Of a stretch of DNA of 64,000 bases, positions 8,178 to 42,566 are shown in pieces (the stretch's first letter is position 1; each line of letters starts with the position of its first letter). The position numbers and the translations under genes are program-made. Below the pieces are notes generated by a model, which saw only the letters and a program-made list of their open reading frames with translations, had not been told where the DNA came from and did not search any database. Source of the DNA: an uncultured Candidatus Saccharibacteria bacterium (GTDB taxonomy: Bacteria > Patescibacteriota > Minisyncoccia > Phycocordibacterales > CAYSCM01); assembly GCA_964429815.1 (NCBI GenBank), contig CAYSCM010000001.1, positions 164,240 to 228,239 on the forward strand, written 5' to 3'.

Positions 8178-8284
8178 CGATACCTCCTTAGATCAGATTC
8201 GGGGCAAGTTTACAGGAAATATTGTAAAAATCAATAAATGTGATATAACTGGCTTGAAAGTTCTACTTCTTATTGGAGGTATCC

Positions 8285-8392
8285 ATGGCCCGTGAATCCA
8301 AAGGTTTCTGGCAAACCTGGGAAGCTCCTATTGGGGCTGCACTTATGCTCCTGGTACCCGCCATAGTGTTGGTTCTACTCATCAAATGGTGA
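8285..8392 (+). CDS. 35-aa single-TM peptide (MARESKGFWQTWEAPIGAALMLLVPAIVLVLLIKW)
   Basis: GGAGG Shine-Dalgarno, TTGTAA-16nt-TATAAC promoter-like site, downstream hairpin aggccc...gggcct plus T-run. Shares the GFW-x2-W motif with the 7315 peptide. Confidence 0.5.
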   Translation: MARESKGFWQTWEAPIGAALMLLVPAIVLVLLIKW

Positions 8393-8449
8393 GGAAAACG
8401 AAACCAACTCGAAGAGGCCCGTCGCTTCAGCTGGGCCTTTTCTTTTTTA

Positions 8450-9157: not shown

Positions 9158-9158
9158 A

Positions 9159-25407: not shown

Positions 25408-25934
25408 ATGAAGAAAACCAGCAAAAACAACAGCATGCCAAAGAAACGCGCCGCCCTATCGACCGGGCGCTCATTCGTAAACTTTTAACCGACGTACTGG
25501 AACGCCTCCAGATAACCGTTGAGGCGCTCGAGGAGATCGACCACCCGGCCCACCCCATTTTTTTGGTGAAGACACCCGATTCGGCGGTTCTCATAGGCAA
25601 CCGGGGAGAGAGCCTCCAAGCACTCAACTATCTCTTGCGAAAAATGGTCGAGCAAGAGGGTGACGGAGAGGGCATGGAGCAGTTTCTCGTCGACGTCAAT
25701 CACTACCAAAGCAAAAAAATAGACGAGCTGCGGCAAAAAGCGCTCATGCTCGCGGAGCGCGCTCGTCTCTTCAAGCACGACGTTGAAATGAGCCCCATGA
25801 GCGCCTACGAACGCATGATCGTGCACGCAACATTCGCCGATCATCCCGACGTCGGCACAGAATCGCAAGGCGAAGGAAAGTTCCGCCGCGTGGTCATCAA
25901 ATATAAGGGTTCAGGAAGCGGCGGAGGTACCTAA
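25404..25934 (+). CDS. jag: Jag/KhpB-like R3H RNA-binding protein
   Basis: C-terminal R3H region ERMIVHATFADHPDVGTESQGEGKFRRVVI. Position after yidC. Confidence 0.8.
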   Translation: MNEENQQKQQHAKETRRPIDRALIRKLLTDVLERLQITVEALEEIDHPAHPIFLVKTPDSAVLIGNRGESLQALNYLLRKMVEQEGDGEGMEQFLVDVNHYQSKKIDELRQKALMLAERARLFKHDVEMSPMSAYERMIVHATFADHPDVGTESQGEGKFRRVVIKYKGSGSGGGT

Positions 25935-27199: not shown

Positions 27200-27200
27200 A

Positions 27201-28142
27201 TCAAAATCCTATAGCGCTGCACCTCGGTGCTTCTCCGAATCCCGGACAATATTGCTGGCAATCAGCGAGAGAGGAAAAGGCTACTTTCCCAGTCTCGATT
27301 CCCTTCCCCCAGGTGCAGAGTGTTTCCTGCGGGGCATTAAAAAGACTCTGTGGCTCTTGTGGCGGAGGTGGCAGGTTCGTCGTTTGTGATTGTAAAACGT
27401 CAGCCGACACCGCCGTGCATCTGCCCGAACAGGTTCGCTGGCACTCATCCATTGATGCAACATAGTAGCGTCGTCCTTGATATGAACCGTTATCTTCACG
27501 AAGTTCGCACGCCGCCTGAGAACTTATGCTAGTTGGAATCCCGTTTATAATCGGAGTCTTGTTTGGCTGGGTCGTTATTGTCGTCGGGCTCCCCGTCCCG
27601 GGCGTTGTGGATGGCCCGCCGAGGAGCGAATTATTTTTTACAATCTGCGGATTGATGGTGACGAGGAGTACGTAGGAGAGAAGGATGATAAGAAGGCCGT
27701 ATATCGCGGATTCAATGTAATCACGCCCACCCTCTTTCCCAAACGGCGTACTGCTCAGCATGTACTTGAAACCGCCAAAGGTAATCATAAGAACGGCGAG
27801 AAGCGCTGCGATGCCAAGGCCAAAATCAAAAATAGTATTGAGGACACTACTGAGACTCCCGTTGTTTTTTGTGTAAAGCCCTCCAATATTTTCAAGGGGG
27901 ACGAAACCTTGAGAGCCGGTTACTTGTGTTCCTAAGGGAGTAGTTTGTAAGGGGGAAGCGTCACCACATCCACCGGTTCCTTGTACATCAACGCAGGGTG
28001 TGCCCGATTGCGCTGGTTGAAGTGCAGAAGAACAATTTTCCGTATAGCCTCGAGAACAGGAGTCTCCAGATTCTGCCTTAGAAAAGGCAAACGGCAGCAT
28101 CAAAAGACAGAGAATGGAGATTATTATTTGTGACTTTCTCAT
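27201..28142 (-). CDS. T4SS-pilin-like (TrbC/VirB2-type) protein with a Cys-rich C-terminal extension
   Basis: Signal peptide, then LNTIFDFGLGIAALLAVLMITFGGFKYMLSSTPFGKEGGRDYIESAIYGLLIILLSYVLLVTINP (two-helix pilin core). Followed by about 130 aa with two Cys-containing modules. Confidence 0.6.
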   Translation of the reverse strand: MRKSQIIISILCLLMLPFAFSKAESGDSCSRGYTENCSSALQPAQSGTPCVDVQGTGGCGDASPLQTTPLGTQVTGSQGFVPLENIGGLYTKNNGSLSSVLNTIFDFGLGIAALLAVLMITFGGFKYMLSSTPFGKEGGRDYIESAIYGLLIILLSYVLLVTINPQIVKNNSLLGGPSTTPGTGSPTTITTQPNKTPIINGIPTSISSQAACELREDNGSYQGRRYYVASMDECQRTCSGRCTAVSADVLQSQTTNLPPPPQEPQSLFNAPQETLCTWGKGIETGKVAFSSLADCQQYCPGFGEAPRCSAIGF

Positions 28143-28143
28143 A

Positions 28144-29163
28144 TCATTTACCAAAGTTTATTTGAAGGGCTATCGATGTGGCCTGAAAAATTTGCGAAAC
28201 ATTTTGTAGCGAGAGAGCAAGATTTGCTGTGCCCGATGATGGGGCCGTCTGGCGCAGCACTACATCGGCCGGATTTTTACTCGAGGGAGTCACGCTCTTG
28301 TCATTGAGCGTCCAGGCGTAGGTGAGCGCTCCTCCGCCGCGGGAATCCGTCGAGAAAAAGTACGGGAAGGCGGAGACCGTCGCCTCGCTTTTAGTGAGAT
28401 TGACACTTTCAGGAAGTGCCCGGTCGAAACGAAATCCTAGAAGTGGGTCGTTTTCATAGAGGATGACGAATGGCTCGTCTCCGTTGAACGAGAGGGAACG
28501 AGTTGCTTTGATGGAACCATCCGAACTCGCTACGTCTACCGACACATTGATCCCGCGATAGACGCGGGCGCCGGGGATGGTAACGGACTGAGCGCCGCGC
28601 CCCGAAGAATCCCCCAGCACCTGGCCATTAAGGTGCCACGTGTAGAAAAGGGCCTCAGGCCTGATGCGCGCGCCGTTCTCGTCTACGAAAAACGGCATCG
28701 CAAAGAGGACCATCGTGGCGTCATAGGGAGCGAGAGCTTTACCGCGGTAAAAGGGCGGGGTGTAGACATTCGCTTGCCACAGCAGATCAAGGCCTGCCGG
28801 GCGAACGATGGCTGTTTTGGTAAGGGTCGAGCCATTGGGGAGTGTTGCGTTAACGCGAAGCACATTGATGCTTCCAATACCGCCAACCGTGAAGTGGGCC
28901 GTGACGACACCAACCCCTGAGTCAATGATCTTCCCGTTAAGGCTCCACACCAAGGTGGCGCGGGCAAGGTTTTCTGCGTAACTGGCGACCTGGGCCGATA
29001 CGGCTTGACCCGCTCCGGGTACCTCAGGCGAGAGGGAGAGCGAAAAATCTCCTGGCACGGTGGGCAAATTTAGCTGTGCAAAGAGCGTTGTAGGGAGCGA
29101 AAGGGCCGCGACGAGGAGTGTCGTCGCGCAGAGGCCGCGCATGATTCGGGGGGAAATAGTCAT
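28144..29163 (-). CDS. secreted beta-rich protein of unknown function
   Basis: Signal peptide MRGLCATTLLVAALSLPTTLFA. ATGA coupling with the upstream gene. Confidence 0.5.
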   Translation of the reverse strand: MTISPRIMRGLCATTLLVAALSLPTTLFAQLNLPTVPGDFSLSLSPEVPGAGQAVSAQVASYAENLARATLVWSLNGKIIDSGVGVVTAHFTVGGIGSINVLRVNATLPNGSTLTKTAIVRPAGLDLLWQANVYTPPFYRGKALAPYDATMVLFAMPFFVDENGARIRPEALFYTWHLNGQVLGDSSGRGAQSVTIPGARVYRGINVSVDVASSDGSIKATRSLSFNGDEPFVILYENDPLLGFRFDRALPESVNLTKSEATVSAFPYFFSTDSRGGGALTYAWTLNDKSVTPSSKNPADVVLRQTAPSSGTANLALSLQNVSQIFQATSIALQINFGK

Positions 29164-29777
29164 CAGGCTGCCTTCACTTTGGCTTGAGATTTATTATATT
29201 CCCTATCCTCCTGGTGAACGAGGCGGATTTCCGACCACACGCACATCGTCCATATAGGTATTGCATTTAACCCAGGCGCTAATTTAACCGCGATGAGAAT
29301 CAAATCTCGGATCGGGCGTTTTAGTGTCAAAAAGTTATGACCAGAAGTAGCAAACCATCCAATGAAAATAAAGAAAATCACGATCGACAAAACCGTGTTG
29401 ATGATGAGTCCAATGATGAGAAAGGTGAGAACAAGTTGGATAAGATCGAAAAACATCGCCACTCCCATCATGGCCGCATACTGAAGTCCTCCGATGCGGT
29501 GACGTTTTTTTGCGGGTACGGAAACGCGTTGGGCCGTCGCCACTTGAGCGGGCTCCCGTGGTGAAACCCGCGTATATCCCGATGGCTGCCGTTGCCAAAA
29601 CGCACGCTCTTGCGGGTCGAGTTCCTTACTCCCCATGCTCACCTTCGGGTTCCCGCCTATGCGAATGCCTCGCTTTACTCCTTCGGCTCGTAAGGCTTCG
29701 TATTCCTGTCGAGTCATGGAGGGATCCGCTCCAGCCGGAGGGGTCCACTTTTTTGATTGCGGGTCACGCGGAGGCAT
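29163..29777 (-). CDS. membrane protein (cytosolic N-terminal region, three C-terminal TM helices)
   Basis: Hydrophobic segments GLQYAAMMGVAMFFDLIQLVLTFLIIGLIINTVLSIVIFFIFIGWF. Confidence 0.5.
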   Translation of the reverse strand: MPPRDPQSKKWTPPAGADPSMTRQEYEALRAEGVKRGIRIGGNPKVSMGSKELDPQERAFWQRQPSGYTRVSPREPAQVATAQRVSVPAKKRHRIGGLQYAAMMGVAMFFDLIQLVLTFLIIGLIINTVLSIVIFFIFIGWFATSGHNFLTLKRPIRDLILIAVKLAPGLNAIPIWTMCVWSEIRLVHQEDREYNKSQAKVKAA

Positions 29778-29779
29778 GA

Positions 29780-31612
29780 CTATTTATTCGCCTCGGCCTC
29801 GAGCTCCTGGCGGGCCTTTTTAATAGCGAGAATTTGGCTCGGATCGGAGGTGATGATTTGATCTTCGGTATAAGAGGCGATGATTTTGATGGCGACGTGT
29901 TTGAGGCCGGCAAAGAATATCCCCTCTCCCACGTCCGATTCCAGGAGCAGGTACTTTTCCTCGTCGGTGAGGTTAAACGTTTTCTGCACGTTGTCGATGG
30001 AGGTTGGCGATTGCTTCAGCAGCAGCTGAATGGAGGAGTTGGTTATCATAGGGAGCCCGTAGGGAGAGTTCAAGAAATCAGAAACGTCTTGCGTGATGGT
30101 GGCAAGACCCAGGAAGTATTTGCGCCCGCGTTTGGCGACCGAAAAGAGGAAACTCGCCGTATCCTCGCTCTGCATCATCCAGTGCGCTTCATCGACGATA
30201 AAGAGGCGTTTCTTGAGCTCCTTGCGCACTGCGGTCCAGATGAAGTGCGTGACGATGTACATGGCGACGGGCTTGAGCTCATCCTCCATGTCGCGCACGG
30301 AGAATACGACAAAATTTTTGTTGATATCGACATTGGTCGGGCGATTGATGAAACCTGCCCACGTACCCTTGGTGTACTTGGAGAGGCGCTGCACGAGCGA
30401 CTCGGAGCCTTCCATTCCGGCGAGCACGAGCTCGAAGTCGGAGAGGAGCGGCGGCTCGATGCTGGTGAAGTCGCTCTCCCCCGTTATGTCCTTGAGCGCA
30501 TAGGTTTCCGTGATAGCCCGGTCGATGATGGAGTCTTCCTCCGGCGTTAGGCCGCCGAGCATGATGCGGAACAGGCCCACGAGATTCACGATGTTGCTTC
30601 GAAGCACGTCGCCGGGAGCTTCGTCTTCCCGCGGGGTCGGCAGGTCGAAGGGGTTGATGTGGTGCTCGGAGGTGAGGGATATGTTGAAGTAGCGCCCACC
30701 GACGGCGTCCGCCATGTACTCGTACTCACGCTCAGGGTCGATGACAATGACCTCGGTGCCGAACATAAGGGAGCGCAAAATTTCGAGCTTTACCGCGTAG
30801 GATTTGCCGGCGCCGGATTTTGCGAACGTCACCGAGTTGTAGTTTTCGAGGCTAAAGCGATCAAAGAGGATGAGGGAGCTGTTGTGGCGGTTGATGCCGT
30901 AGAGAATTCCCTTGTCGGAAGTGAGATCGAAGGAGACAAAGGGAAAGAGCGAGGAGAGCGGCGAGGAGTTGAGCTTCGTGTGCACGGAGAGCTCATCGGA
31001 GGCTATGGGAAGTACGGAGCGGAACCCCTGCTCCTGCTGAAAGAGCGCGGGCTTCACGTAGATGAGGCGGCTCTCGAGCATGGTCTTTATCTCGCTCTCC
31101 ACCTTGTCGAGCTCTTCCTGCGAGTTGCCATAGATAGAAATGTAAAGCCCGACATCGAAGAGTTTCTCTTGCGCCTGCTGGAGCTGGTCGCGGAGCGATT
31201 CAAGGTCACGATAGGCGGTGTCGAGCATTGGATCGCGCACGAGCCCGCGCTCCTCTCGGGTCGTGATCTGACTTTGCACCTCCGCGACCTTTTTTTGGAA
31301 TTTCCGAAGCACTGTAGCGGTGTCCGCCGGATGCACGAATATGGATACGTCGAAGACCCGATCGAGATTTATGATGGGAGCAAACCAGGAATCCGCGAGG
31401 TAGCGTGGGTAGGAAATAACAAATAGCGTGCGCACCAGCTTGTCGCCGAGATTCATCTCCCGCGGGGTGATCTTGAGCGCTGAAGGGGCGATGATGTCGT
31501 GGAACTCAAGCGCTCCCGCTTCATAGATTTCCTGCGGCAAAATGGGAGTGACCGGGACTTCCCTCCTCTTTTTCCCGCCCAAGCCTCCTGTGAGAAAATC
31601 AAGTAGAGCCAT
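29780..31612 (-). CDS. virB4: VirB4/TraC-family type IV secretion ATPase (C-terminal ATPase portion)
   Basis: Walker A FAKSGAGKSY, Walker B RLFIVDEAHWMM, ATITQDVSDF. Confidence 0.85.
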   Translation of the reverse strand: MALLDFLTGGLGGKKRREVPVTPILPQEIYEAGALEFHDIIAPSALKITPREMNLGDKLVRTLFVISYPRYLADSWFAPIINLDRVFDVSIFVHPADTATVLRKFQKKVAEVQSQITTREERGLVRDPMLDTAYRDLESLRDQLQQAQEKLFDVGLYISIYGNSQEELDKVESEIKTMLESRLIYVKPALFQQEQGFRSVLPIASDELSVHTKLNSSPLSSLFPFVSFDLTSDKGILYGINRHNSSLILFDRFSLENYNSVTFAKSGAGKSYAVKLEILRSLMFGTEVIVIDPEREYEYMADAVGGRYFNISLTSEHHINPFDLPTPREDEAPGDVLRSNIVNLVGLFRIMLGGLTPEEDSIIDRAITETYALKDITGESDFTSIEPPLLSDFELVLAGMEGSESLVQRLSKYTKGTWAGFINRPTNVDINKNFVVFSVRDMEDELKPVAMYIVTHFIWTAVRKELKKRLFIVDEAHWMMQSEDTASFLFSVAKRGRKYFLGLATITQDVSDFLNSPYGLPMITNSSIQLLLKQSPTSIDNVQKTFNLTDEEKYLLLESDVGEGIFFAGLKHVAIKIIASYTEDQIITSDPSQILAIKKARQELEAEANK

Positions 31613-31614
31613 AG

Positions 31615-32250
31615 CTATAGGTTCGCTGCGATCGGCTTTTCGAGCTCACCGGGGTTGAAGAGTTTGTAGTAAAGCTCGATGGCTTCCTCGGTGCCTAAGG
31701 TCGCGACCCTAACTCCGGTGCGCACGAGCCCTTGCTCGACGACCGCGACGCGTTGCTCAAGTTGGGTGCGGCTCTCTTCGAACGTCGCGGCGGCCTCCTC
31801 CTTCGTTTTTTTGCCGAAGCTCGGGAGCGTTGGGAGCCCGCTTTTTCCCACGGAGAGCACCGCCGGCGAGTACGGCACAACGATAAAGAAATTTTTCGTC
31901 ATAATGTTGGCCTGCTCGACGAAGCTTTTTATGAAATCAATGTACTCGCGTGTCTGGATTTTCATAAGCTCGGTGGTCTGCTCTTTGTACTTTCCCTCAA
32001 GGAGCGCCACGTAGGGGCGGATATCGAGCTGGCGTGATTCGATGAATATCTGGATGGAAAAGTCGAGCGAGTTGAGGAAGTTTTGGAACTGCGCGAGGAT
32101 GGCGGTCTGTTCGTCGGCGGATTTAAGCGCAAAATTGAGCGAGGAGGCGATGAGAATGGAGCGCAACCCTCCGTCCTTGAGGACCACGATGCCATCACGC
32201 ACCTCCTTGATGGGCACGAACTCCTGGCTTGCTTTTCCGGCGACGGCCAT
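31615..32250 (-). CDS. VirB4 N-terminal-domain-like protein (apparent split VirB4)
   Basis: FVPIKEVRDGIVVLKDGGLRSILIASSLNFALKSADEQTAILAQFQNFLNSLDFSIQIFI resembles the N-terminal domain of Gram-positive-type VirB4 proteins. Lies 2 nt upstream of the ATPase gene. Confidence 0.45.
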   Translation of the reverse strand: MAVAGKASQEFVPIKEVRDGIVVLKDGGLRSILIASSLNFALKSADEQTAILAQFQNFLNSLDFSIQIFIESRQLDIRPYVALLEGKYKEQTTELMKIQTREYIDFIKSFVEQANIMTKNFFIVVPYSPAVLSVGKSGLPTLPSFGKKTKEEAAATFEESRTQLEQRVAVVEQGLVRTGVRVATLGTEEAIELYYKLFNPGELEKPIAANL

Positions 32251-32256
32251 GGTGAT

Positions 32257-32670
32257 TTAGCGATAGGCGCCCGTTTTCTCCTTTATATCGAGGCTCCAGG
32301 CGAGATCCTTAAGTTTGCTCTCCGAGAGCTTAGGCACGACGATAGTCGCCTCCAGTTTCGTCTCCGGAGTGGCTTTTGCGGCGGCTTTGGGAACAACCTT
32401 TTTCCAGAGGTAGAGCCGGCCGCGCATCATGTAGTAGAAGGCCGCCTCGAGAGTCTCGATGAACGGACGATTATTTATCTTATAGAACGCAAGTGCAGCG
32501 GAAAGCGCGGCGACCGGAATACCAAGGAGTATCACGAGAAAAAGTGGCAGAAAAACGTAGAGAATGGCGATCACTCCTCCACCGCCGGCGAGGTAGACAA
32601 ACTGGCGGAACGTGAGGGGCCCCACTATCTTGTCTTCCACCTCAATGAACTGCGGCACCTGGAACTGCAT
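32257..32670 (-). CDS. PrgI-family (VirB3-like) membrane protein
   Basis: MQFQVPQFIEVEDKIVGPLTFRQFVYLAGGGGVIAILYVFLP. Internal ATG at 32670. Confidence 0.6.
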   Translation of the reverse strand: MQFQVPQFIEVEDKIVGPLTFRQFVYLAGGGGVIAILYVFLPLFLVILLGIPVAALSAALAFYKINNRPFIETLEAAFYYMMRGRLYLWKKVVPKAAAKATPETKLEATIVVPKLSESKLKDLAWSLDIKEKTGAYR

Positions 32671-32743
32671 AGAAGTAGTATACCCCGCGCAAAGCCGCAT
32701 CGCGGCTTTGCGCTGTAGATTCGGCGCGTACTACTATGAGTGC

Positions 32744-33034
32744 ATGAAATTCTATACGCCAAACTATGGAAACGCTTCACACGACGCCCGTCCGCAGTTT
32801 GAAATGCGCGGCAACGCCATCTACATCACCGCGCACCACCCCGGCTTTACCCCCAAAGGGGCGGTGCTCCCCTGGTATGAAAATAGGGGCGGGAAAGTCT
32901 ATGCGACCGAGCATCACCCCGAGGGCAAATCACTCCATCCGGTCTATGAAATCCGGGGCGATAGGGTGCACACTACGGTCGAACATTCTCAGCACGACCC
33001 ACTACGCCACAGCTTTGAACTCCGCCTGCATTAA
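32744..33034 (+). CDS. 96-aa His-rich protein made of three ~28-aa repeats
   Basis: PQFEMRGNAIYITAHHPG / PWYENRGGKVYATEHHPEG / PVYEIRGDRVHTTVEHSQHD. The only plus-strand gene inside the locus. Confidence 0.45.
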   Translation: MKFYTPNYGNASHDARPQFEMRGNAIYITAHHPGFTPKGAVLPWYENRGGKVYATEHHPEGKSLHPVYEIRGDRVHTTVEHSQHDPLRHSFELRLH

Positions 33035-33042
33035 AGCGAGTT

Positions 33043-33441
33043 CTATTTTTTTCGATATACAAATACTGACTTTATGCCGATGATGATCAGACTGATCAAG
33101 AAGAAAAGTATCGAGAGGAAGAACGAAATCCGCCCCTTGTCATTCGGAAACATCCAGTCAGTGCTGGTATTTGGCGCGATAAGTATCAACGCCACGGAGA
33201 TTGCAAGAAACCACTGGGCAAAGCGGATCCACATTCGGAAAATTTCATCTCGGAGTTTATAGGTGACTAAACTCAAGATGAACAAAATTGGAAAAAACCT
33301 AAGTAAATCAATCAACCACAAAGTCTGATCTCTACAGAAAAAAAATTTATCTTGACATCCATTACGAAGCACGAGGCTGAGAAGGATAAGAAACATTCCC
33401 GCGCCTATTCCGGAAAAAATTAAAAGAGTTTTTTTGGTCAT
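33043..33441 (-). CDS. small 4-TM membrane protein
   Basis: Four hydrophobic helices. AT-richer codon usage than the flanking genes. Confidence 0.5.
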   Translation of the reverse strand: MTKKTLLIFSGIGAGMFLILLSLVLRNGCQDKFFFCRDQTLWLIDLLRFFPILFILSLVTYKLRDEIFRMWIRFAQWFLAISVALILIAPNTSTDWMFPNDKGRISFFLSILFFLISLIIIGIKSVFVYRKK

Positions 33442-33443
33442 AA

Positions 33444-36440
33444 CTATCTCAATCCTACCGTCACCGAATAGGTCTTTCCATCATCTAGCTGTGCAGACAC
33501 TTTATACCAGTACCCAGGAGTAACCCCCTTCGTGTTCCAGTTGTAAATATATTGCCCTGGTGCCGAGTCCCAACGAAACTCACCTCCAGAGGTGCTGGGG
33601 TCGGAATATGTTGACTCATCGATGGCGGCAGTTAAAGTCGAGCCTTTAATCGGGGTAAGCCAAACTGGATTTTTACCTGCTTGTGCTAGCATTCCATTCA
33701 CTTTCTTAAGTTGGAATTTTACCGGTACGGTACTTCCTCCTTTAAAAACGCTTAGAGACTGAGTGGGATTAATCGACGGGTCGTTTATTGGCTGGAGAAA
33801 ACCGCTCCACCGATAGGTGATAGTCAGTGTGCCGACAATAAAAGAGGTGAATTGGTAGGTGCTCGAAGTTAAGGTGCCTATGGTGCAAATAATTGGATAA
33901 ATTCCAATACCAGTTGTTGCTGTTGCCGTGGTTGAACATTGTGGAACCCCGGCAATGTCGTTGTGTGCCGCATCATCGCCATTTACAAATCCGCTGAAAC
34001 TTACCGTAAAGGAAGGAATAGGAGAACCGAGCACGATGGTTTTATTATCCACGGTGACCGTAAGGGGATTGAAAACTACTAGTCCGTCCAACTTCGGAGT
34101 GAGAGAATAAACTGTAGTTCCGTCTCCGTTTACATCGAGTGAGAGAGGACTCGCGCCAGCGATCGTCCCGTCAGAGAAATTCATAGTCGCGATGGTAGTT
34201 GTTGCCGAAGGAATGTCTGCGAACGTTGTTGTTGCAAGAATAGAATTCCCTTCAACCTCTTCTATTTTGAGAGTAAATCCTCCAGCCGATTCTCCTTCCA
34301 ACCGCAGAGTCGGGAGGTCTTCTGCAGGGACACTCACGTATTTAATGTCACCAAACTCAGTGTACGTTGCTCCTGGGATGGTATTTTCAAGAATCCTTGT
34401 ACTCGTTGCTAGTTTCAGGTGGTTCCCATTTTTATCATTGATCTCAATGGAAAGTGGTGAGTGCAGGAAGTATCTTAGACGCTTTTGAATTAAATGAGAG
34501 GGAACTTCTTTGGAGATGTATTGCGGTAGCTGTGCTGCGCTATTTATAATGATACCGTCAATCAAATCGTTGAGTTGCCCAACTTCAAGGATGTCTGCGT
34601 GGTCTCTGCCCAAAGGAATAGTGAGTCGGTTGTCCTTATTGAACTGGTTCAAATCAACCCAATATCTGCTCACGTTAGGCGAGCTCGTACTCATCGTGAG
34701 CGCACTTGGAGTGACTACAGTTCCGTCCCCATCGACAACGATGCCAAGGTCTTCGTCGAGACATGGGTTGTACCTGAGACAATGGTAAAAGCCACCATTT
34801 CGATAAGAAATATTACCCACTGTTTCGTTGCCCCACCCCGCAATTTGATACAACTGAATTCCCGACGGTGGAACCCACGTATCGAGATGGCTATGCAGGA
34901 CGTCAGCATCATTCAAGAGCAATGCATTACCGACGAGAGGATAGGTCACATTGGAAAATGAAGGCCCAGTTCGCCCCTCGATCCCCGAGACAAATGAAGC
35001 GAGCTCATTGAAAGTATTTATATTCGAGCCATAGGCGTCAGTAAATATTTTTGTCGTGCTGCCGCTCCGAAATGATATGGGTGGAGTAATCACATCACTC
35101 CCAGGCCCGTCAAAGTACGCTCGGGACGGGAGGAGGTTGTACACCATTGGAGAATTTTGTGCGAATGCGCGCGCCGTCGCCTCGCTTAGAACGAACCCCA
35201 AGGCATGTGATTGATTGGTTCCATCCAGGAGAGCCCCTACGGCGATAGGGGTCCCCGTTTGAGGAACGGCGACAAAAATAATCTTGTCGATAAGGGAGCT
35301 AGCTTCCGGACCGAGTATTTCCATCAATCTTTTGGCCAAAAGGCCCCCGTTGGAATGGGCGATGATAGTGACTTTTCCGGTATTCGAGGTTCCGGCCAAG
35401 CGTCGAAGTTCCTGGAGTATGTACGGGGTCGTAGTGGAGCGGAGGTTTCCCGAATAGTAGATATGATCGCCGACCTGATGCCCATACTTTAGAATATCAT
35501 CGAGCGACAATCGCCAGTCATAAGCAGCCGGCAGCCAATCCTTGATCGTGCCGGCGGTTTTGAGTTGATCCATTTCACCGATAAAACTTTTGTAAATATT
35601 CGCTCCGGTCGGCAATTCGTCGATAACGTCGCCGATTTTTGTATATATATCGCCACGCACGCTTGAACCATCCGGATTCATGAAAAGATCCCGCGCATCG
35701 GCATTGCTGAAGGGCTCCCACAGTCTATCTTCCCCTCCGCCGTCGGCCGGGCGATATAAGCGACTTGCCTCTATGCCAGGCAAAAAGAGCACGTTTGAGT
35801 TGCTTTGCGTATTGATATTACTCGTTCCGAGTTCGTCATACATCAGAAGATCGCCCAGGTCTGGGCGTGCACCGAATTCTGCCGACAAAGCGACGGTGTC
35901 GATGAAATCTCCCGCCGCATGAGCCACGGCGCCTACCCACGAGCAGTGTCCAACATCAACATCATCTTGCTGAAAACATGTTTCCTTGGCACCTACATGA
36001 TCTCGCCATGCAAAAAGATATTGATGCCACTGTCCATCGAGAGGAGTAAATCTATTTCTGAATTCACAATTGGTTGAAGCCGAAACATTCGGCGCACCGG
36101 TACAAAGTAAAACGATGCTGCCGTACCCAAATTGAGCCCATCCGCTCTGGGCTTTTGCGTAGAATGTGATGTTTCCTTCGGTTAACGGAGTCCCTGTTTT
36201 GTAAATTCTAGGAATTTGGAAAAGCACGGTACTTTGAAGACATTGACCGGAGATACACCCGCTGCTCACTTGGGTAAACGGGCCTACACTTCCACCGTAC
36301 ACGTTCCAGCCAAAGTATCCGAAGGGTAAATCGAAGGAGTCGGAGACGGGAGCGGCCGCAAACGCGTGACTGCCGGAGAGAAGAAGAAAAAATAGTCCGA
36401 AAACGAAAACGAAGAGTCGCCAGTAGCGGACTTTTTTCAT
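33444..36440 (-). CDS. 998-aa secreted alpha/beta-hydrolase (lipase / LCAT / PGAP1-like) with C-terminal MBG-like and Ig-like domains
   Basis: Signal peptide. VLFLPGIEASRLY. Nucleophile elbow VTIIAHSNGGLLAKRL (AHSxG, as in Bacillus-type lipases). The C-terminal YQFTSFIVGTLTITY region resembles MBG adhesin modules. Confidence 0.65.
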   Translation of the reverse strand: MKKVRYWRLFVFVFGLFFLLLSGSHAFAAAPVSDSFDLPFGYFGWNVYGGSVGPFTQVSSGCISGQCLQSTVLFQIPRIYKTGTPLTEGNITFYAKAQSGWAQFGYGSIVLLCTGAPNVSASTNCEFRNRFTPLDGQWHQYLFAWRDHVGAKETCFQQDDVDVGHCSWVGAVAHAAGDFIDTVALSAEFGARPDLGDLLMYDELGTSNINTQSNSNVLFLPGIEASRLYRPADGGGEDRLWEPFSNADARDLFMNPDGSSVRGDIYTKIGDVIDELPTGANIYKSFIGEMDQLKTAGTIKDWLPAAYDWRLSLDDILKYGHQVGDHIYYSGNLRSTTTPYILQELRRLAGTSNTGKVTIIAHSNGGLLAKRLMEILGPEASSLIDKIIFVAVPQTGTPIAVGALLDGTNQSHALGFVLSEATARAFAQNSPMVYNLLPSRAYFDGPGSDVITPPISFRSGSTTKIFTDAYGSNINTFNELASFVSGIEGRTGPSFSNVTYPLVGNALLLNDADVLHSHLDTWVPPSGIQLYQIAGWGNETVGNISYRNGGFYHCLRYNPCLDEDLGIVVDGDGTVVTPSALTMSTSSPNVSRYWVDLNQFNKDNRLTIPLGRDHADILEVGQLNDLIDGIIINSAAQLPQYISKEVPSHLIQKRLRYFLHSPLSIEINDKNGNHLKLATSTRILENTIPGATYTEFGDIKYVSVPAEDLPTLRLEGESAGGFTLKIEEVEGNSILATTTFADIPSATTTIATMNFSDGTIAGASPLSLDVNGDGTTVYSLTPKLDGLVVFNPLTVTVDNKTIVLGSPIPSFTVSFSGFVNGDDAAHNDIAGVPQCSTTATATTGIGIYPIICTIGTLTSSTYQFTSFIVGTLTITYRWSGFLQPINDPSINPTQSLSVFKGGSTVPVKFQLKKVNGMLAQAGKNPVWLTPIKGSTLTAAIDESTYSDPSTSGGEFRWDSAPGQYIYNWNTKGVTPGYWYKVSAQLDDGKTYSVTVGLR

Positions 36441-36496
36441 CCGGGAAGCCTACCATTGTCCCGCTTAGAGTCAATGCATACCGTGGCGTGCATTGA

Positions 36497-36534
36497 ATAC
36501 TCAAATTATAAGCTATAGCTTATAATTTGAGTAT
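36497..36534. repeat. 38-nt perfect AT-rich palindrome, copy 2
   Basis: atactcaaattataagcta|tagcttataatttgagtat. Differs from copy 1 by C>A in the left arm and the mirror G>T in the right arm. Confidence 0.85.
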
Positions 36535-36590
36535 GGTGTTTTTCTGCTGCACACCGCTCTGAGCCTACAACGACATCTGGTCGGGTCTGA

Positions 36591-37493
36591 TTAGGAGAGG
36601 GGTTCGCGGTAGGGGTCGACTTTTGGCTTTTCAGGACCTGCGGAGGCGGAGGGGCCTATCGGTGGCACGATTTTTTTCTCCTGCATCGGGGAGCGCACCT
36701 GGCTTTGGAGCTTCGCCGCGGTGAAGTCTTGTCCAAAAGTGCGAAGTGGGGGAAGTGAGCTTTCCTGCACCGGCGCTCCCACCACCGGCCCTCTATTAAT
36801 AGAGGGGGTCGGGGCAGGTTGCGGTGCGACCAGAGATGTGGCTTTTGTCGGAGCTGAGGAGACCGAGGCCGGACGGACGGGAATTTCTGGCGTCTTTTGA
36901 AGAGCAGCTATCGCGTCGGCGAGAGCTTCTCTGCCGCCGGGCGCCGTCGAGGGGCGCGCAGGAATTGAACTCGAAAGTGGAGGTTTTGTCTGGGGAGGGG
37001 GCGGGGCTTGCCTTGGTACTTGCTCCCCAGGTGGCCTTTGTGGTTGCGGGGTTTGCGTCGCGGGTTGCGGTCGTGGTGTTTGTTGGGGTGCGGCTCCTCC
37101 TTCCCCACCGCGGGCATGTGCGAAGGGGGCGGATTGAAGGGAGGGCGTTATATCTCCTTTGAGAGGAGTTTGTTTTGAGGGTTCCTCGGTAATTTTTTTA
37201 AGAGAGTCGCGAATGGGTTTAAAAATCTGTTCATTAACATCCAGAACAACCGAGCCGACTTTTTCTACAGGAAAACCACGTTTTCGAAGTTCATCTGGTA
37301 GTACCTCAGCCTTAATTTCTCCAAGAATGACTAGCGTGATTACATCACTAAGAAGACCAACCTTATCAATGAGTAGCGCCTGTTTCCTACCAATGGCTTG
37401 AATAGCTTCTGTTACTTTCTCAGAAAAAAGAACGTCTTGGAGTTCTGAAGGAAGTTGGAATATCCGTCTTATTTTTTGCTTAGTATCGATCAT
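36591..37493 (-). CDS. protein with a globular N-terminal domain and a long Pro-rich tail
   Basis: 300 aa, no TM segment. A PQ/PP-rich segment fills the C-terminal two thirds. Confidence 0.5.
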   Translation of the reverse strand: MIDTKQKIRRIFQLPSELQDVLFSEKVTEAIQAIGRKQALLIDKVGLLSDVITLVILGEIKAEVLPDELRKRGFPVEKVGSVVLDVNEQIFKPIRDSLKKITEEPSKQTPLKGDITPSLQSAPFAHARGGEGGAAPQQTPRPQPATQTPQPQRPPGEQVPRQAPPPPQTKPPLSSSIPARPSTAPGGREALADAIAALQKTPEIPVRPASVSSAPTKATSLVAPQPAPTPSINRGPVVGAPVQESSLPPLRTFGQDFTAAKLQSQVRSPMQEKKIVPPIGPSASAGPEKPKVDPYREPLS

Positions 37494-37498
37494 ACTTC

Positions 37499-39943
37499 TT
37501 ATGGAATCCTACCGAGAGTGTGGAAGAGACGTCCCCCTTGGCTATTTCCAAAGTTTGCTAGCGCAAGTATGGCAGGATCGGTCGCACCCGCGTTTCGGCG
37601 ATTAATTACTTCTTGCATAATGGCATTACCAGCACCCACATCAGCGCCTGCTTTCATCATTTCTCGAAGCGCTTCTTGTTTTAGGTGAGGAACAAGCTCG
37701 GGAAGGAGGGTGGCTCTCGTACTTGAATCGTCATAGAGACCCAGCGCCATTTTGGCCATTGCCTTGGGATCAACCCGCAACTTCTTAATATCCGTACCAA
37801 AGGTTCCAATCGCTCCATGGCCCAGAGACTCTTTAAGGAAATCCCCTCGCTGTTTACCAAGTGCCGCTTTAATACTGGCGGCGATCTTGTCGCTTTTCAT
37901 AACCTCGTCGTATTTATCCTGGGACAGTGTCCTCGCCAAGGTGTCGATTTGTCCAGCGAGGGCCTTTTCAGTAATTATGAGCTCGAGCTCTTTATTGTTT
38001 ACCTTGTCGAATTTCTTTATTAACTCCTCGTCTTCCGCTGAAAGATGGCCAGGAATTGCGGCCGCTGCCGCACGTGCAGCATTTTCCAGAAGTTCTTTGT
38101 GACGAGCGGTGGTTACTTTATCGCGCATTTCGTCGGTGTACTTATCATTTTTCACATCAGATATGGATAGATACTGTGAAGAGGTAAGATTCTTCGCTAC
38201 CCAGTCTTTTGTCAAAGTCTTCACCCCCAAAGAGGCCAGCTGCGTATCACTCATCGCACCAAGAGCTCGAAGACCTTTTGCTTCAGCTTCTTGTTTTTGT
38301 GCGTCTGTGTATTTTGTTGGATTCTCACTGATCTCAATCGCGCGCTCAATGTCGTCGCGGAAGTCTGCCTCCCTGCGTACCGCAGCACGCCCGAGCTTTT
38401 CCTTCTTAACCTCTTCCTTGATCGCGACTCCTGATTTAGTCGTTCCAAACTTAGCACCTGCAATTAGGCCGGTGGTGTACTTGCGGGCAAGGGAACCCAA
38501 CTGGGTCCCACCAATAAGGCGTGACTGAGCGAGCCTTTGATCAAGGTTCGCAATGGGCCTGCCAATTGCATTGCGGGCCAGGAAGCCACCGCCGTATTTG
38601 CCGATAGATTTTACAGTAAAGTTGATTGCATTCAGGCCTTCATTGCCAATTTTTTTTGCAACCGATAGGGTTAGAAGTGATAATCCAATAACAACTGCAA
38701 AGTTTATTAGCAATTGGATTGATCCGGGGGCAGTAGCCGCCGAGCTTCCGTCCGCTAGGTCCGCAAACGTTCCATTACCAATAGCGGTTTGAAATGCTGG
38801 ATTTTTCATTACACCCAACACGAACCACAATAATCCAAAGTAGGCCGGTAGCATTATCGCATTTGACCAAAGCGCCCCCCACCACTGGTTCCATAGTCCA
38901 CCGAAGAAGGGTAAAAAACGAGCAAGCACAGCTAACGGAGAGGTGACCATTAGCACAAGGAATACAATAATTCGCCCAATTATATGTAAAGCAGCGATGA
39001 GGAATGAATAGGCAAGGATTATAAAGAGAATGCAGCCAAGCATACTCAAAAGAAAACTATTGCCATTACTGAGCAGGGCGGCCGCCCTACTGCCGGTGAA
39101 GTTTTTCAAATCATATAAAGACCCCATCCGTAAAACTTGCATAAACTGTCCCGATAGCCCGACATCCGAGTTTAGAAATTGATCAGTCTGCCCCTTCGCA
39201 AGTAACTGAGTGTAGAACTGTGTTGAAATATAATTACTTGCATCGATTACGACCCTTGTTAGAGCGAAGCTAAAATTTATCAGTAACGCCGCTATTACCA
39301 CGTTCGCCAAAAGTTTTTTTGCCCCGTATTGTTGTACCCGCAATATGGTGGAAATGCCGATAATCAAAAGGCTGAAAATAAGAACAATATTCGCCACATC
39401 ACGAATGGTCATCCAAAATCCGTCGAGAGTACCGAAGGTCTTTATTGTTGTTCCAAAGTCAAGAACACCCCACACCACCACCTTGTTCAAGAAGAACCCG
39501 GCAACTCCCAGAATCCAAGCAAACAAGGTTAGGAATGCGTACCCAATACATCCGATGGAAATATCAGGAATAAAGCCGACGTACGGGTCACAGTTGGGTG
39601 GCTTACTTCGTATATCGTCACCCTTTTTCTTTGAGGCATCGGCTGCTTGTGTATCGGTACTTTCCCTTACGTCTGCATCACTCACAGCGTCACCCTTTAC
39701 GGTAATTAAGGAACCATCGGCCGCACGATAAAAATACGGATCAGTTATGTTTTTCCCTGGGCCAAGCAATGTATAGGTCTTTCCATTCCAAGTGCAAGCT
39801 GGGGGGTAGTTGTTTGCGCCAGTGGCTGTGCAAAGAGGGTCCGCGGCGAGAGCAACTTCTGTATGTAGTGAAAAGCCATACCCAACCACAAAAGACTTTA
39901 AGATGAAAATTGTGAGTAGTAATGTTGAAACAGCTTTTCTCAT
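37499..39943 (-). CDS. 814-aa polytopic membrane protein (VirB6/TrbL-like channel candidate) with a long helical C-terminal domain
   Basis: Signal peptide, Cys-containing ectodomain, about 8 TM helices, then about 370 aa of charged helical region. ATGA coupling with the upstream gene. Confidence 0.4.
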   Translation of the reverse strand: MRKAVSTLLLTIFILKSFVVGYGFSLHTEVALAADPLCTATGANNYPPACTWNGKTYTLLGPGKNITDPYFYRAADGSLITVKGDAVSDADVRESTDTQAADASKKKGDDIRSKPPNCDPYVGFIPDISIGCIGYAFLTLFAWILGVAGFFLNKVVVWGVLDFGTTIKTFGTLDGFWMTIRDVANIVLIFSLLIIGISTILRVQQYGAKKLLANVVIAALLINFSFALTRVVIDASNYISTQFYTQLLAKGQTDQFLNSDVGLSGQFMQVLRMGSLYDLKNFTGSRAAALLSNGNSFLLSMLGCILFIILAYSFLIAALHIIGRIIVFLVLMVTSPLAVLARFLPFFGGLWNQWWGALWSNAIMLPAYFGLLWFVLGVMKNPAFQTAIGNGTFADLADGSSAATAPGSIQLLINFAVVIGLSLLTLSVAKKIGNEGLNAINFTVKSIGKYGGGFLARNAIGRPIANLDQRLAQSRLIGGTQLGSLARKYTTGLIAGAKFGTTKSGVAIKEEVKKEKLGRAAVRREADFRDDIERAIEISENPTKYTDAQKQEAEAKGLRALGAMSDTQLASLGVKTLTKDWVAKNLTSSQYLSISDVKNDKYTDEMRDKVTTARHKELLENAARAAAAAIPGHLSAEDEELIKKFDKVNNKELELIITEKALAGQIDTLARTLSQDKYDEVMKSDKIAASIKAALGKQRGDFLKESLGHGAIGTFGTDIKKLRVDPKAMAKMALGLYDDSSTRATLLPELVPHLKQEALREMMKAGADVGAGNAIMQEVINRRNAGATDPAILALANFGNSQGGRLFHTLGRIP

Positions 39944-41601
39944 ATCGTTTGTTGTTGCGGGAAGGCGTAGCAGGCATCGAGCCTCTGCAAGGCGTCCTGA
40001 ATGAGCGGATTTATTTCGGCGAGCATGTCGGACTGCTCTTGCTGCGCTGTTGCGATATCGGCATCGGAGGGGAGCGCGCCGGAGGATGTGAGTGCAGTGA
40101 ACTGGGCCGAAGCGGCATCGAGCTCGTCGGGAGAAGTTGCATTCTGTATCTGGGATTCAAGTTGATACGCCTGGTTGATAGCACCCTGTGTTTTGGCGAT
40201 TTGAGCCGAGAGAGCCACCTTCTTGGTCGTGACGAGGCTCGCCTGCGTCGTCGAGGCGGCGAGAATGCTTCGCTGCGCCGTCGCTAGGTCGGTGGAGCTG
40301 AGGGAAGAGCTGGCAATTTTGTTCCGGTAACAGTCAATGAGGCTCCCGAAATCGCTGTCGGCGATGAGCACTTGGTTTAGCGTCGCCTGCTTGACGCTTA
40401 TGTACTGCTGGGCTTTAGCGATCGAGACATCGACGAGCGAGAGACCCGCACTTTGACGCCCCGAAATTTCTGCTGATTGCGCGTTGGCGACGTAGACGTC
40501 AAGTGCGGTACCGCCGCCAAACTGGCCGTTTTGCGTCGAGAGACCCTTGACGCCGCCGAGCGCGAGAAGGCCTTGCTTGATGAGCTGTCCGACGAGCGCG
40601 GAGATGATGGAGTTTATGTCATTGGCGAGCTCGAGCTGGTCTATATCGGTGCCTAGGACTTTTGAGAGCTGATCTTGTATCGCCGCTCCCGGGGTGACGA
40701 TGGTGCAATTTGCTTTCGGGTCCGTTTTATAAGGATCTTGTCCAGGATAGTAGGTCGTGAAGGTGCCGCCGGTGCCGCTTGTTCCGTCGCTGTAGGTGGT
40801 TATAGGTGATTGGCTGCTGCACTGTTTGAACGAGAAGAAGCCGCGGCCGAACTCAAGAAGCTTCGTGTTGGTGTACTGCGCGCTCGCGATACGCACGGAG
40901 AGCTCGCTCTGTGCCATGAGGTAGGAGCCATAGGGATTGTTTTGCGGATTGGTTGTCATCGCAAACCACGCGGGCCAACCGCCGGCAGCAAAATTCGTGA
41001 ACGCACTGTTGACGTTTCCGACGACGCTTGAGAGTGTGCAGCGCGCTTTGTTTTGGTACGGTTGGAAATTAAGCGCGAGCGCGACGCGCACCTGGAGCTG
41101 AAAGGGGGAACACAGGAATGAGAGTTCGGAGCCGTAAATAAATTCTCCTATCACCTGGTCGGCGACGTTGGTGAGGAATCCTTGAAGGTCGGTGACGAAG
41201 GCGGGATTCCCCTGAAAGCCGTTGTTTATCCAATTGACGATGCTTCTGGTGAGCTGCGCAAGGAGCGTCTTGGCGATGAGGATGATGATGGGCTTAATAA
41301 CACAGTCATGAATGGTCGCGCTTTCGGTCGCGCCCTGGATGCCACCGCTCGCGATATGGAGATACTTGTCTACGGCTGGGACATCAGCAGCTTGAAGTCC
41401 TATAGAACTGACCCCCGTTGCCTTGCCCTGAATAAGGGAGCTTAGGCAGAAAGCCGTATCGGGGCCGGCGGGAGTCTGAGCACTCGCCCTCTGGGGGAAG
41501 AAAGAAATAGCGGCAGCCCATGGCGCCAGAAGCACGACGAGGAGGAGCCCGGCGATTTGCCTTTGCATTGAGCCACGGATTGTAGAAATAAGCCCCCTCA
41601 T
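39940..41601 (-). CDS. 553-aa secreted protein of unknown function
   Basis: Signal peptide ...LLLVVLLAPWAAAISFFPQRASA. The C-terminal third is Ala/Gln-rich and helical. ATGA coupling. Confidence 0.5.
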   Translation of the reverse strand: MRGLISTIRGSMQRQIAGLLLVVLLAPWAAAISFFPQRASAQTPAGPDTAFCLSSLIQGKATGVSSIGLQAADVPAVDKYLHIASGGIQGATESATIHDCVIKPIIILIAKTLLAQLTRSIVNWINNGFQGNPAFVTDLQGFLTNVADQVIGEFIYGSELSFLCSPFQLQVRVALALNFQPYQNKARCTLSSVVGNVNSAFTNFAAGGWPAWFAMTTNPQNNPYGSYLMAQSELSVRIASAQYTNTKLLEFGRGFFSFKQCSSQSPITTYSDGTSGTGGTFTTYYPGQDPYKTDPKANCTIVTPGAAIQDQLSKVLGTDIDQLELANDINSIISALVGQLIKQGLLALGGVKGLSTQNGQFGGGTALDVYVANAQSAEISGRQSAGLSLVDVSIAKAQQYISVKQATLNQVLIADSDFGSLIDCYRNKIASSSLSSTDLATAQRSILAASTTQASLVTTKKVALSAQIAKTQGAINQAYQLESQIQNATSPDELDAASAQFTALTSSGALPSDADIATAQQEQSDMLAEINPLIQDALQRLDACYAFPQQQTI

Positions 41602-42566
41602 GAAGAAAGCGTAAGCTTGAGGTTATTCACGAGCATAAAGCTTCCTAGGGTGCGGAAGGACTGGTTGAGCGCGGCTTCTCGCGCCTCATAGCCGCTCATG
41701 GCGACGAAGGCGACGAGAGGGTCGGTCGCGATGGTCTCGAGGTCGGCGAGCGTTGCCTTCATGCCCGAGAGAGCGTTGAGGAGTCCCACATGTGCCGAAA
41801 GTGCGTCGCGCGGAACGTTCATCGACACGAGCGCGCGGATACTTTCCCCATAGAGCGCGACGTCGTGCTTGTAGGTCATCATCCCGTTTGGATCTTGACC
41901 GCTGATGGCATTCTGGAGCGTGAGAAGCTCGTACTCTTTGATGGAAAGGACCGGTGCGAGCGCGGCGCTGAGGGCACGGTTGTATGCGGCAAGCGTCGAC
42001 GATGAGGTGCCGGTGACGGAAACGTCGCCGGCTGCGTACACCGTTGGTTTGGTCGCGACGTTGCCGCTTGCGGCTACGGCATTGACGACCGCCTGCTCAT
42101 CCTCGGGGGTGAGCGTCTGGCCGCCCTGCTTTTTGCTCAAATAATTTTTGAACAGATTGATGGCAAGCGCGTCGGTGTTGCTGAGGCCATTGCCGGGGGC
42201 GGTACGAGCGGTAAGGTCGAGCGTCGATCCTGGAGACGTGACAGACGGACTTTTTCCCTCCCCCGGTGTGAGAGGGTCGCGGCCCTGCGCGACTTCCTGT
42301 CCGTCGGAGACCCCGTCGCCGTCGGTGTCGGGATTGTGCGGATCGGTGCCGCGGAGTTGTTCTTCCCAGTCGGGAAGGCCGTCCCCGTCACTGTCCTTAC
42401 TTGCCGACGCTATAAGAGCGCTACTTATAGCATCTTCCGAGCTCGCAAGTGAGGGGGAGGATGGGGTTTTTGGTTGTAGGAGCGTGAAAAAGGCGACTAA
42501 GGCGACGAAAAGAGCCACCACAATGAAAACAAGTACCAGCCCTCTGCTTGGTAGCCACTTGTACAC
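41598..42566 (-). CDS. membrane-anchored protein with thrombospondin type-3-like Ca-binding repeats; first gene of the locus
   Basis: TM anchor LVLVFIVVALFVALVAFFTLL. DSDGDGLPDWEE...DTDGDGVSDGQE. Confidence 0.55.
   Translation of the reverse strand: MYKWLPSRGLVLVFIVVALFVALVAFFTLLQPKTPSSPSLASSEDAISSALIASASKDSDGDGLPDWEEQLRGTDPHNPDTDGDGVSDGQEVAQGRDPLTPGEGKSPSVTSPGSTLDLTARTAPGNGLSNTDALAINLFKNYLSKKQGGQTLTPEDEQAVVNAVAASGNVATKPTVYAAGDVSVTGTSSSTLAAYNRALSAALAPVLSIKEYELLTLQNAISGQDPNGMMTYKHDVALYGESIRALVSMNVPRDALSAHVGLLNALSGMKATLADLETIATDPLVAFVAMSGYEAREAALNQSFRTLGSFMLVNNLKLTLSS

Follow-up and report, generated by a model that had tools for sequence, protein, structure and literature searches.

A predicted LCAT/LPLA2-like phospholipase with a four-transmembrane partner, carried as a passenger in a T4SS-like operon of a Patescibacteria chromosome

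Bacteria of the candidate phyla radiation (CPR, Patescibacteria) are reported to be lysolipid-rich and unable to synthesize lipids, and their mechanisms of lipid breakdown and uptake are reported as unidentified (PMC7242380, PMC11665869). Lipidomics suggests that they take lipids, notably lysolipids, from their neighbors (PMC7242380). In the CPR predator Vampirococcus lugosii, the secreted phospholipase Vamp_34_196 has been proposed to scavenge host lipids (PMC8080830), and secreted phospholipases of the LCAT family act on host-side membranes in apicomplexans, as described for P. falciparum LCAT (PMC10325081) and T. gondii LCAT (PMC5830472). Here, we analyzed 64,000 nt of chromosomal DNA of an uncultured Candidatus Saccharibacteria bacterium (contig CAYSCM010000001.1, positions 164,240 to 228,239; hereafter the window), in which an LCAT-like protein of 998 aa is encoded within an operon resembling a type IV secretion system (T4SS). 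A first-pass annotation had regarded this protein as a candidate effector of the secretion locus. We instead favor, with a probability of about 0.6, a Sec-exported phospholipase A or acyltransferase that works with a dedicated membrane partner across the Patescibacteria, acts on foreign membrane lipids, and is a passenger of the operon at this locus.

The enzyme is only 15–17% identical to PLA2G15 (lysosomal phospholipase A2, LPLA2) and LCAT (PF02450). Unlike these, it is bacterial, restricted to CPR bacteria and exported by Sec, and its 998 aa comprise several domains (a variable N-terminal domain, a conserved beta-sandwich, MBG_2 and PxKF) around a catalytic domain of predicted activity. It is also encoded together with a protein of four transmembrane (TM) segments, whereas the eukaryotic PLA2G15 and LCAT are without such a partner. 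The type VI secretion system (T6SS) effector Tle4 of Pseudomonas aeruginosa and its immunity protein Tli4 (PDB 4r1d) form another pair for comparison. However, no T6SS was seen here and export would proceed via Sec, Tli4 is a soluble periplasmic protein in contrast to the four-TM partner, and the fold of the enzyme clearly resembles LPLA2 more than Tle4. To our knowledge, no T6SS is expected in CPR bacteria.

The apicomplexan LCATs, which are secreted by parasites and act on or around host membranes, offer the best functional analogy for an epibiont attacking the membranes of its host, but they are eukaryotic, serve egress from inside the host cell and have no membrane partner gene, and the analogy is one of family membership only. 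Vamp_34_196, compared here by its description, resembles the enzyme as a secreted phospholipase of a lipid-auxotrophic CPR bacterium linked to host membrane damage and lipid supply, but no family assignment, LCAT-type fold, four-TM partner or cassette was described for it (PMC8080830). Our literature search returned no paper that ties the LCAT family, the PxKF domain or the four-TM family to Patescibacteria. The idea of feeding by a secreted phospholipase has thus been published before (PMC8080830), and what is new is a CPR-specific, partner-dependent branch of the known LCAT/LPLA2 enzyme family.

The enzyme and its four-TM partner

The enzyme and partner genes and the parts of the enzyme are located in the window as follows.

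33444-36440, minus strand: gene of the 998-aa exported LCAT/LPLA2-like serine hydrolase
36354-36440, minus strand: signal peptide, residues 1-29, with an AFA↓A cleavage motif and no lipobox Cys
35811-36353, minus strand: variable Cys-rich N-terminal domain, residues 30-210, covered by one listed homolog (P0060); predicted local distance difference test (pLDDT) score <50
34506-35810, minus strand: catalytic LCAT/LPLA2-like alpha/beta-hydrolase domain, residues 211-645
35352-35354, 34725-34727 and 34599-34601, minus strand: codons of the putative triad residues Ser363, Asp572 and His614, respectively
34071-34493, minus strand: beta-sandwich domain with a DxNGDG loop, residues 650-790, in all family members examined
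33822-34064, minus strand: MBG_2 immunoglobulin (Ig)-like module, residues 793-873 (Pfam PF18676, 57.5 bits against a cut-off of 25)
33447-33806, minus strand: C-terminal PxKF domain, residues 879-998 (NCBIfam NF038114, 97.9 bits against a cut-off of 35)
33043-33441, minus strand: 132-aa four-TM partner gene, co-oriented with the enzyme gene and 2 nt after it

The first-pass annotation had described a 998-aa open reading frame (ORF) with a signal peptide, the segment LFLPGIEASRLY, an AHSNG nucleophile elbow and adhesin-like C-terminal modules. All of these are present, and the C-terminal modules are MBG_2 and PxKF, both above their curated cut-offs. The domain order is signal peptide, variable Cys-rich domain, LCAT/LPLA2 catalytic domain, conserved beta-sandwich with the DxNGDG loop, MBG_2 and PxKF. 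Of the three families that had been named as candidates, LCAT was recovered and the other two were not: the Pfam LCAT profile (PF02450) matched residues 285-617 over profile positions 68-388 of 392 with 47.2 bits (gathering threshold 21, E = 2.5e-12), whereas PGAP1 stayed under its threshold (17.1 vs 24.3 bits) and Lipase_2 was not among the Pfam matches listed.

We found at least 1386 homologs of the enzyme (counted as sequence clusters), 120 of which were aligned. H362, S363, G365, G366, D572, H614, Y307, D308 and R310 are invariant in these 120 sequences, and W309 is retained in at least 90% of them. The putative nucleophile Ser363 sits in AHSNG, between strand 357-362 and helix 365-383 of the structural model, and Asp572 in DGDGTV. 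In a pairwise alignment with what we take to be the human LCAT sequence, whose triad numbering checks out, Ser363, Asp572 and His614 fall on S181, D345 and H377, and YDWR falls on YDWR. The anticipated Ser-Asp-His triad is therefore most probably Ser363-Asp572-His614, as judged from its invariance and its alignment to the LCAT triad.

Searching the PDB by sequence, with the protein or with a 65-sequence profile, yielded marginal matches only (E 0.014–0.16), and the family link therefore had to rest on Pfam and on fold comparison. An AlphaFold model built with 65 homologs reaches pLDDT ≥90 at 626 residues and is confident throughout residues 211-998; the non-conserved residues 21-210 are unstructured or of no recognized fold. 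The overall fold, including the family-specific subdomains, matches LCAT/LPLA2, and the closest structure is that of LPLA2. On all the sequence and fold features examined, the enzyme belongs to the LCAT/LPLA2 family, and phospholipase A/acyltransferase activity is predicted for it. Its homologs are labeled in databases as 'hypothetical', 'PxKF domain-containing' or 'pimeloyl-ACP methyl ester carboxylesterase'.

In the established chemistry of the family, an acyl-enzyme forms on Ser and is then resolved by hydrolysis or transfer. By this analogy, the enzyme would cleave acyl chains from glycerophospholipids and yield lysolipids. That it is instead an esterase of non-phospholipid substrates (a polyester such as polyhydroxybutyrate, wax, triacylglycerol or an acylated polysaccharide), which would involve no membrane attack, strikes us as exceedingly improbable.

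Several features place the enzyme outside the cytoplasm. Its N terminus, MKKVRYWRLFVFVFGLFFLLLSGSHAFA↓AAP, is the sole TM-like segment besides a buried core strand, and a similar N-terminal hydrophobic segment is found in 85/114 full-length homologs. The Cys residues come in close pairs, those of the N-terminal domain being 62/67, 113/125 and 155/166, in keeping with an extracytoplasmic protein. The nucleophile Ser lies anywhere from position 74 to 941 across the homologs, which indicates that the region preceding the catalytic domain is swapped among family members. In the beta-sandwich, which is all-beta in the model with pLDDT >90, the residues S661, P662, G672, F722 and D769 are invariant.

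The four-TM gene had been mentioned merely as an adjacent gene, but it turned out to be a near-obligate partner of the enzyme. We surveyed the best 79 of at least 559 enzyme loci in species-representative genomes, some of which carry multiple copies, with 10 kb on either side. Among the 67 informative loci, i.e. those with at least 450 nt beyond the LCAT stop codon, a profile search found a partner homolog directly downstream on the same strand in 66, and no other neighbor family occurs in more than 9/79 loci. Since no other neighbor is conserved, the enzyme and its partner constitute a self-contained two-gene cassette. It is widespread in Patescibacteria, occurring in hundreds of CPR bacteria mainly of Paceibacteria-type lineages (Kaiserbacteria, Moranbacteria and Lloydbacteria), and its contexts are otherwise unrelated; on a 408-kb Paceibacterota contig, for example, it lies between ftsK/recA and rplJ/rplL.

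An exhaustive HMMER search of 1.84 billion proteins (E ≤ 1e-3) retrieved 1195 representatives of the partner family, nearly all of 125–145 aa, whereas a word-indexed search had given 3 proteins. When the search was begun from two partner homologs, one of their loci had an LCAT-like gene upstream, and the other contained a tandem partner pair behind a truncated upstream gene without an LCAT match. The family shares near-invariant C29 and C36, a FSLITYKxR(D/E)EVFxxW motif and a P-x-x-K-G loop, and is without a match in Pfam, NCBIfam or PADLOC. An AlphaFold2 model of the partner (pLDDT 89.4) has four main helices, the second of which is broken. The charge distribution, although its bias is modest, suggests that both termini are cytoplasmic, and C29, C36 and the P-x-x-K-G loop would therefore face outward. 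Some LCAT-like genes are followed by two tandem copies of the partner gene (loci L005, 12402-13372; L017, 3206-4020; L045, 4063-5724; L167, 578-1604), and two proteins of ~270 aa, P0139 and P0220, with two matched stretches each, look like tandem partner fusions.

An enzyme paired with a small membrane protein could also represent a toxin-immunity system, in which the lipase would be an antibacterial or host-lysing weapon and the four-TM protein its cognate immunity factor. This is the strongest rival explanation and is compatible with nutrient harvesting, but we consider it rather unlikely. Orphan immunity genes are usually common, yet 1.08 Mb of related DNA without LCAT genes contained no partner gene on its own, and neither did the rest of the window. 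The conserved catalytic domain and variable N terminus are the reverse of what is typical of polymorphic toxins. A fold search of the PDB with the partner (best E 4.5) matched no solved structure, immunity proteins included. Moreover, the immunity proteins of Tle effectors known to us are soluble periplasmic proteins or lipoproteins, unlike the partner with its four TM segments and very short loops.

The cassette as an insertion in the T4SS-like operon

The window is an ordinary piece of the chromosome of a bacterium with a small genome, and carries dnaN, dnaA, yidC, polA, ruvB, pilB, uvrD, ksgA, genes for a class A penicillin-binding protein and PNPase, and tRNA genes. Those relatives of its DnaA (~65% identity) and of the LCAT-like protein that carry names belong to the Patescibacteria (Paceibacterota, Kaiserbacteria, Moranbacteria and Lloydbacteria). 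Adjoining dnaA/yidC, a T4SS-like operon of the Gram-positive type on the minus strand encodes, in order, a 322-aa TSP3-repeat protein, a 553-aa protein, an 814-aa multi-pass membrane protein, a 300-aa Pro-rich protein, the LCAT cassette, PrgI, a TrsD/TraC-like protein, VirB4, a 204-aa protein, a 339-aa protein, a pilin-like protein and a 422-aa protein. It matches the origin-proximal, essential T4SS-like cluster known from a cultivated Saccharibacterium, a system with neither coupling protein nor relaxase, for which protein export has been suggested (PMC10633639). The VirB4 gene and the features that bound the cassette in this operon are located as follows.

29780-31612: VirB4 gene
32744-33034, plus strand: 96-aa gene, a true gene at the boundary of the low-GC block, kept in the closest relative
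33035-36590, no strand: lineage-specific insertion of ~3.5 kb (LCAT gene, partner gene and upstream spacer), assigned from gene order and the closest relative
36441-36590, no strand: intergenic upstream edge of the insertion, holding a 38-bp perfect palindrome (36497-36534)

Related T4SS loci were collected through VirB4 (the best 80 of at least 558 metagenomic loci, 77–84% identity), and the order 322, 553, 814, 300, PrgI, 211, VirB4 and onward is kept across them. The distance from the stop codon of the 814-type gene (the VirB6 position) to the start of prgI is 521–1711 nt (median 710) in 43 related loci, compared with 4799 nt in the window. The closest relative found (L166; ENA ERZ27300258 k141_205279), whose DnaA and VirB4 are 89% and 93% identical to those of the window, carries a 300-like gene, a PF05635 gene on the opposite strand, the 96-aa gene and prgI, with no LCAT gene. 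Its 96-aa gene homolog (688-978) is 66% identical and stands in the same place. The PF05635 gene (283-654; 23S rRNA intervening-sequence/four-helix-bundle family) fills the slot equivalent to 33035-36590. Because the slot of the closest relative holds other cargo and the gap is longer here, 33035-36590 is a lineage-specific insertion, and the slot between the 300-aa gene and the 96-aa/prgI genes acts as a variable cargo slot.

The DNA alignment to related T4SS loci covers prgI to VirB4 only, and the ends of the insertion were set by gene order and the closest relative. No flanking direct or inverted repeats bracket 33035-36590, and no integrase or transposase gene lies in or beside it, the nearest tyrosine recombinase being encoded at 57982-58893. 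The 300-aa gene keeps its position in 19 related loci and the 814-aa gene in 43. Together with the 96-aa gene they are native to the T4SS-like operon, whereas the LCAT and 132-aa genes are inserted. The obligate four-TM partner and a variable cargo slot in an otherwise rigidly conserved, origin-proximal T4SS-like operon are the most useful new facts of this analysis.

The proposal that the enzyme is an effector of the secretion locus was not supported. VirB4, PrgI, TrsD or other T4SS genes of the window were found within 10 kb in 0/79 related LCAT loci, an LCAT gene, 132-aa partner or 96-aa gene in 0/80 related T4SS loci, and the slot of the closest relative contains another gene. The framing as a secretion-locus effector is wrong as a family property and reflects the insertion at this locus, which corrects the tempting inference that a gene in a secretion operon encodes an effector of that system. 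An effector delivered by or coupled to the adjacent apparatus and acting on the host membrane at the contact site was considered. In its favor, the gene does stand within the operon and on its strand, 150 nt behind the 300-aa gene, and the homologous system of a cultivated Saccharibacterium is essential, has neither relaxase nor coupling protein and may export proteins (PMC10633639). Such an effector is nevertheless very unlikely in view of the two surveys and the absence of the gene from the slot of the closest relative. The classical Sec signal peptide makes the T4SS unnecessary for export of the enzyme. The upstream T4SS gene is followed by a stable 17-bp hairpin (-20.6 kcal/mol) before the lipase gene begins, and the 96-aa gene, which is divergent from prgI and convergent to the cassette, parts the cassette from prgI; both argue against simple operon read-through. 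These results suggest that the cassette is a passenger of the T4SS-like locus, neither a component nor a demonstrated substrate of it, and coupling to the T4SS is possible only as local co-expression.

The base composition of this region deviates from that of the host genome. The GC content of 33043-36440 is 0.474, the lowest of 607 equal-size segments in the 64 kb (mean 0.538, standard deviation 0.027, z -2.37), and that of the cassette is 0.474 vs 0.536. As had been noted by eye, the enzyme and four-TM genes are lower in GC than 39940-42566 (0.578) and 25931-32700 (0.542), and the low-GC tract runs on through 36591-39943 (0.488). GC at third codon positions (GC3) is 0.485 in the LCAT gene, 0.489 in the 132-aa gene, 0.445 in the 300-aa gene and 0.460 in the 814-aa gene, which rank 5, 6, 2 and 3 from the lowest among 43 genes with a median of 0.634. 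This deviation is genuine, though of moderate size (z -1.4 to -1.9). The composition steps sharply at 33035, the 96-aa gene and prgI having GC3 of 0.65–0.66. The low GC of the proposed block was thus confirmed but not its unity, since it is a composite of the inserted LCAT and 132-aa genes and the native 300-aa and 814-aa genes. The plus-strand gene said to bound it does exist (96 aa, 32744-33034).

LCAT genes of the family track the GC content of their hosts, with a mean difference of -0.010 in 60 loci compared with -0.053 here, and a relatively recent import would fit this difference. We also considered a single AT-rich island, from the 132-aa through the 814-aa gene, acquired as one insertion, and rejected it given the conserved positions of the 300-aa gene (19 related loci) and the 814-aa gene (43 related loci). 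The closest relative has a GC content of 0.493 and GC3 of 0.40–0.57, the values of the low-GC genes in the window. The whole of 33043-39943 may have been imported from a lower-GC relative as a single recombination tract. The low GC3 of the 300-aa and 814-aa genes contrasts with that of their upstream neighbors, which reach 0.67–0.69.

Proposed action on foreign membranes

In the reading that we favor, the enzyme would be exported by Sec with cleavage of its signal peptide, and would then be held at the cell surface via the Ig-like MBG/PxKF stalk and/or the membrane partner. It would bind a foreign membrane, of the host or of a neighbor, with the variable N-terminal domain setting the target specificity. 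An acyl-Ser363 intermediate would be formed from a glycerophospholipid, after which lysolipid and fatty acid would be released or the acyl chain passed to an acceptor. The four-TM partner might dock the enzyme, receive its products or shield the producer's own membrane. The outward-facing architecture, the swappable N-terminal domains and the multiple copies per genome point to a foreign target membrane, as do the reported lipid auxotrophy of CPR bacteria, their reportedly lysolipid-rich membranes and the absence of an identified lipid-acquisition route (PMC7242380, PMC11665869). Harvesting of host lipids by the enzyme is plausible, and the general idea has been proposed earlier for CPR bacteria (PMC8080830, PMC7242380).

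The target might instead be the producer's own envelope, with the enzyme remodeling the producer's lipids, for example by forming lysolipids that relieve curvature stress or by acyl recycling, and the partner presenting the substrate in the producer's membrane. That the enzyme is obligately paired with an integral protein of the producer's membrane fits an action on that membrane, and the closest structure, LPLA2, is itself that of a housekeeping enzyme. The membranes of CPR bacteria are moreover reported to be lysolipid-rich (PMC7242380). However, an N-terminal domain that is long and variable, adhesin-like Ig modules and several divergent copies per genome are traits seen more typically in outward-facing surface proteins that recognize targets, and the absence of the cassette from the closest relative (as seen in its slot region) and its varied contexts would be unusual for a core function. 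We therefore regard self-directed housekeeping as decidedly unlikely.

Some points weigh against an action on foreign membranes by a passenger cassette. The evidence does not tell a foreign target membrane from the cell's own. The triad was placed by alignment and the secondary structure of the model rather than by three-dimensional geometry, a lid or a membrane-binding surface. Tandem partner copies would suit immunity no less than docking. The cassette shares its strand with the T4SS genes and could be co-expressed with them. Finally, no lipid gene was present among 40 ORFs scanned, a 64-kb sample that cannot speak for the whole genome.

A further-reaching and tentative proposal, which we think unlikely as it stands, is that the enzyme and partner are the machine, missing so far, by which Paceibacteria-type CPR bacteria acquire lipids: the surface enzyme would remove acyl chains or lysolipids from a host membrane via acyl-Ser363, and the partner would take over the product and insert it into the epibiont membrane. 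If true, this would explain both the lipid auxotrophy and the reported lysolipid-rich membranes, and the placement in the T4SS-like operon would also co-express the machine with the contact apparatus at this locus. The cassette is in any case a concrete, testable candidate for lipid acquisition by CPR bacteria and makes the question experimentally approachable.

The upstream spacer and other features of the window

The palindrome that had been placed in the block was confirmed as a perfect 38-bp palindrome at 36497-36534, upstream of the LCAT start codon. A second copy is located at 5210-5247. The two differ by two mirror-symmetric compensatory changes and both are still perfect; each lies 22–57 nt beyond the 3′ end of a gene, and no copy occurs in any of the 170 loci compared. 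As RNA they would fold into 17-bp hairpins of -20.6 kcal/mol (36497-36534, z -7.8) and -24.9 kcal/mol (z about -6 to -8 for the two), and their arms carry TATAAT or TAGAAT. A canonical intrinsic terminator was considered, but a T-run follows the palindrome at 36497-36534 on the non-coding strand only, and none follows that at 5210-5247. No sigma-70-like promoter was flagged in 36441-36590. The palindrome could be a genome-specific terminator-like, repetitive extragenic palindrome-like or operator element.

The 96-aa protein contains three repeats of ~25 residues with the pattern (F/Y)E-x-RG-x-x-(I/V)-(Y/H)-x-T-x-x-H. It has no match in Pfam, NCBIfam or PADLOC, and its gene is absent from the other 80 T4SS loci. 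A plus-strand ORF of 105 aa at 32766-33083, in a different frame from the real gene, looks non-coding and was discarded.

VirB4 is unusually conserved: its amino acid identity is 77–84% in the 80 T4SS loci collected above and 93% in the nearest relative. The other proteins of the T4SS-like operon are only 20–40% identical across loci L085-L166, apart from PrgI (~50–60%) and the TrsD-like protein (~60–70%). The first gene of the operon (41598-42566, minus strand) encodes bacterial thrombospondin type-3 (calcium-binding) repeats (PF18884, 49.9 bits), and its position is kept in 27 related loci.

Elsewhere in the window, an 896-aa ORF at 46205-48895 (minus strand) is without a Pfam or NCBIfam match and has a low GC3 of 0.497, and a 175-aa ORF at 50221-50748 (minus strand), searched against Pfam only and without a match there, has a GC3 of 0.443. 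A second low-GC stretch (~0.477 over 3.4 kb) extends from 6.4 to 9.9 kb (6400-9900), starting beside the tRNA-Lys gene (6416-6490); it contains several ORFs without a family match and lies upstream of a DNA polymerase III delta-like gene and polA.

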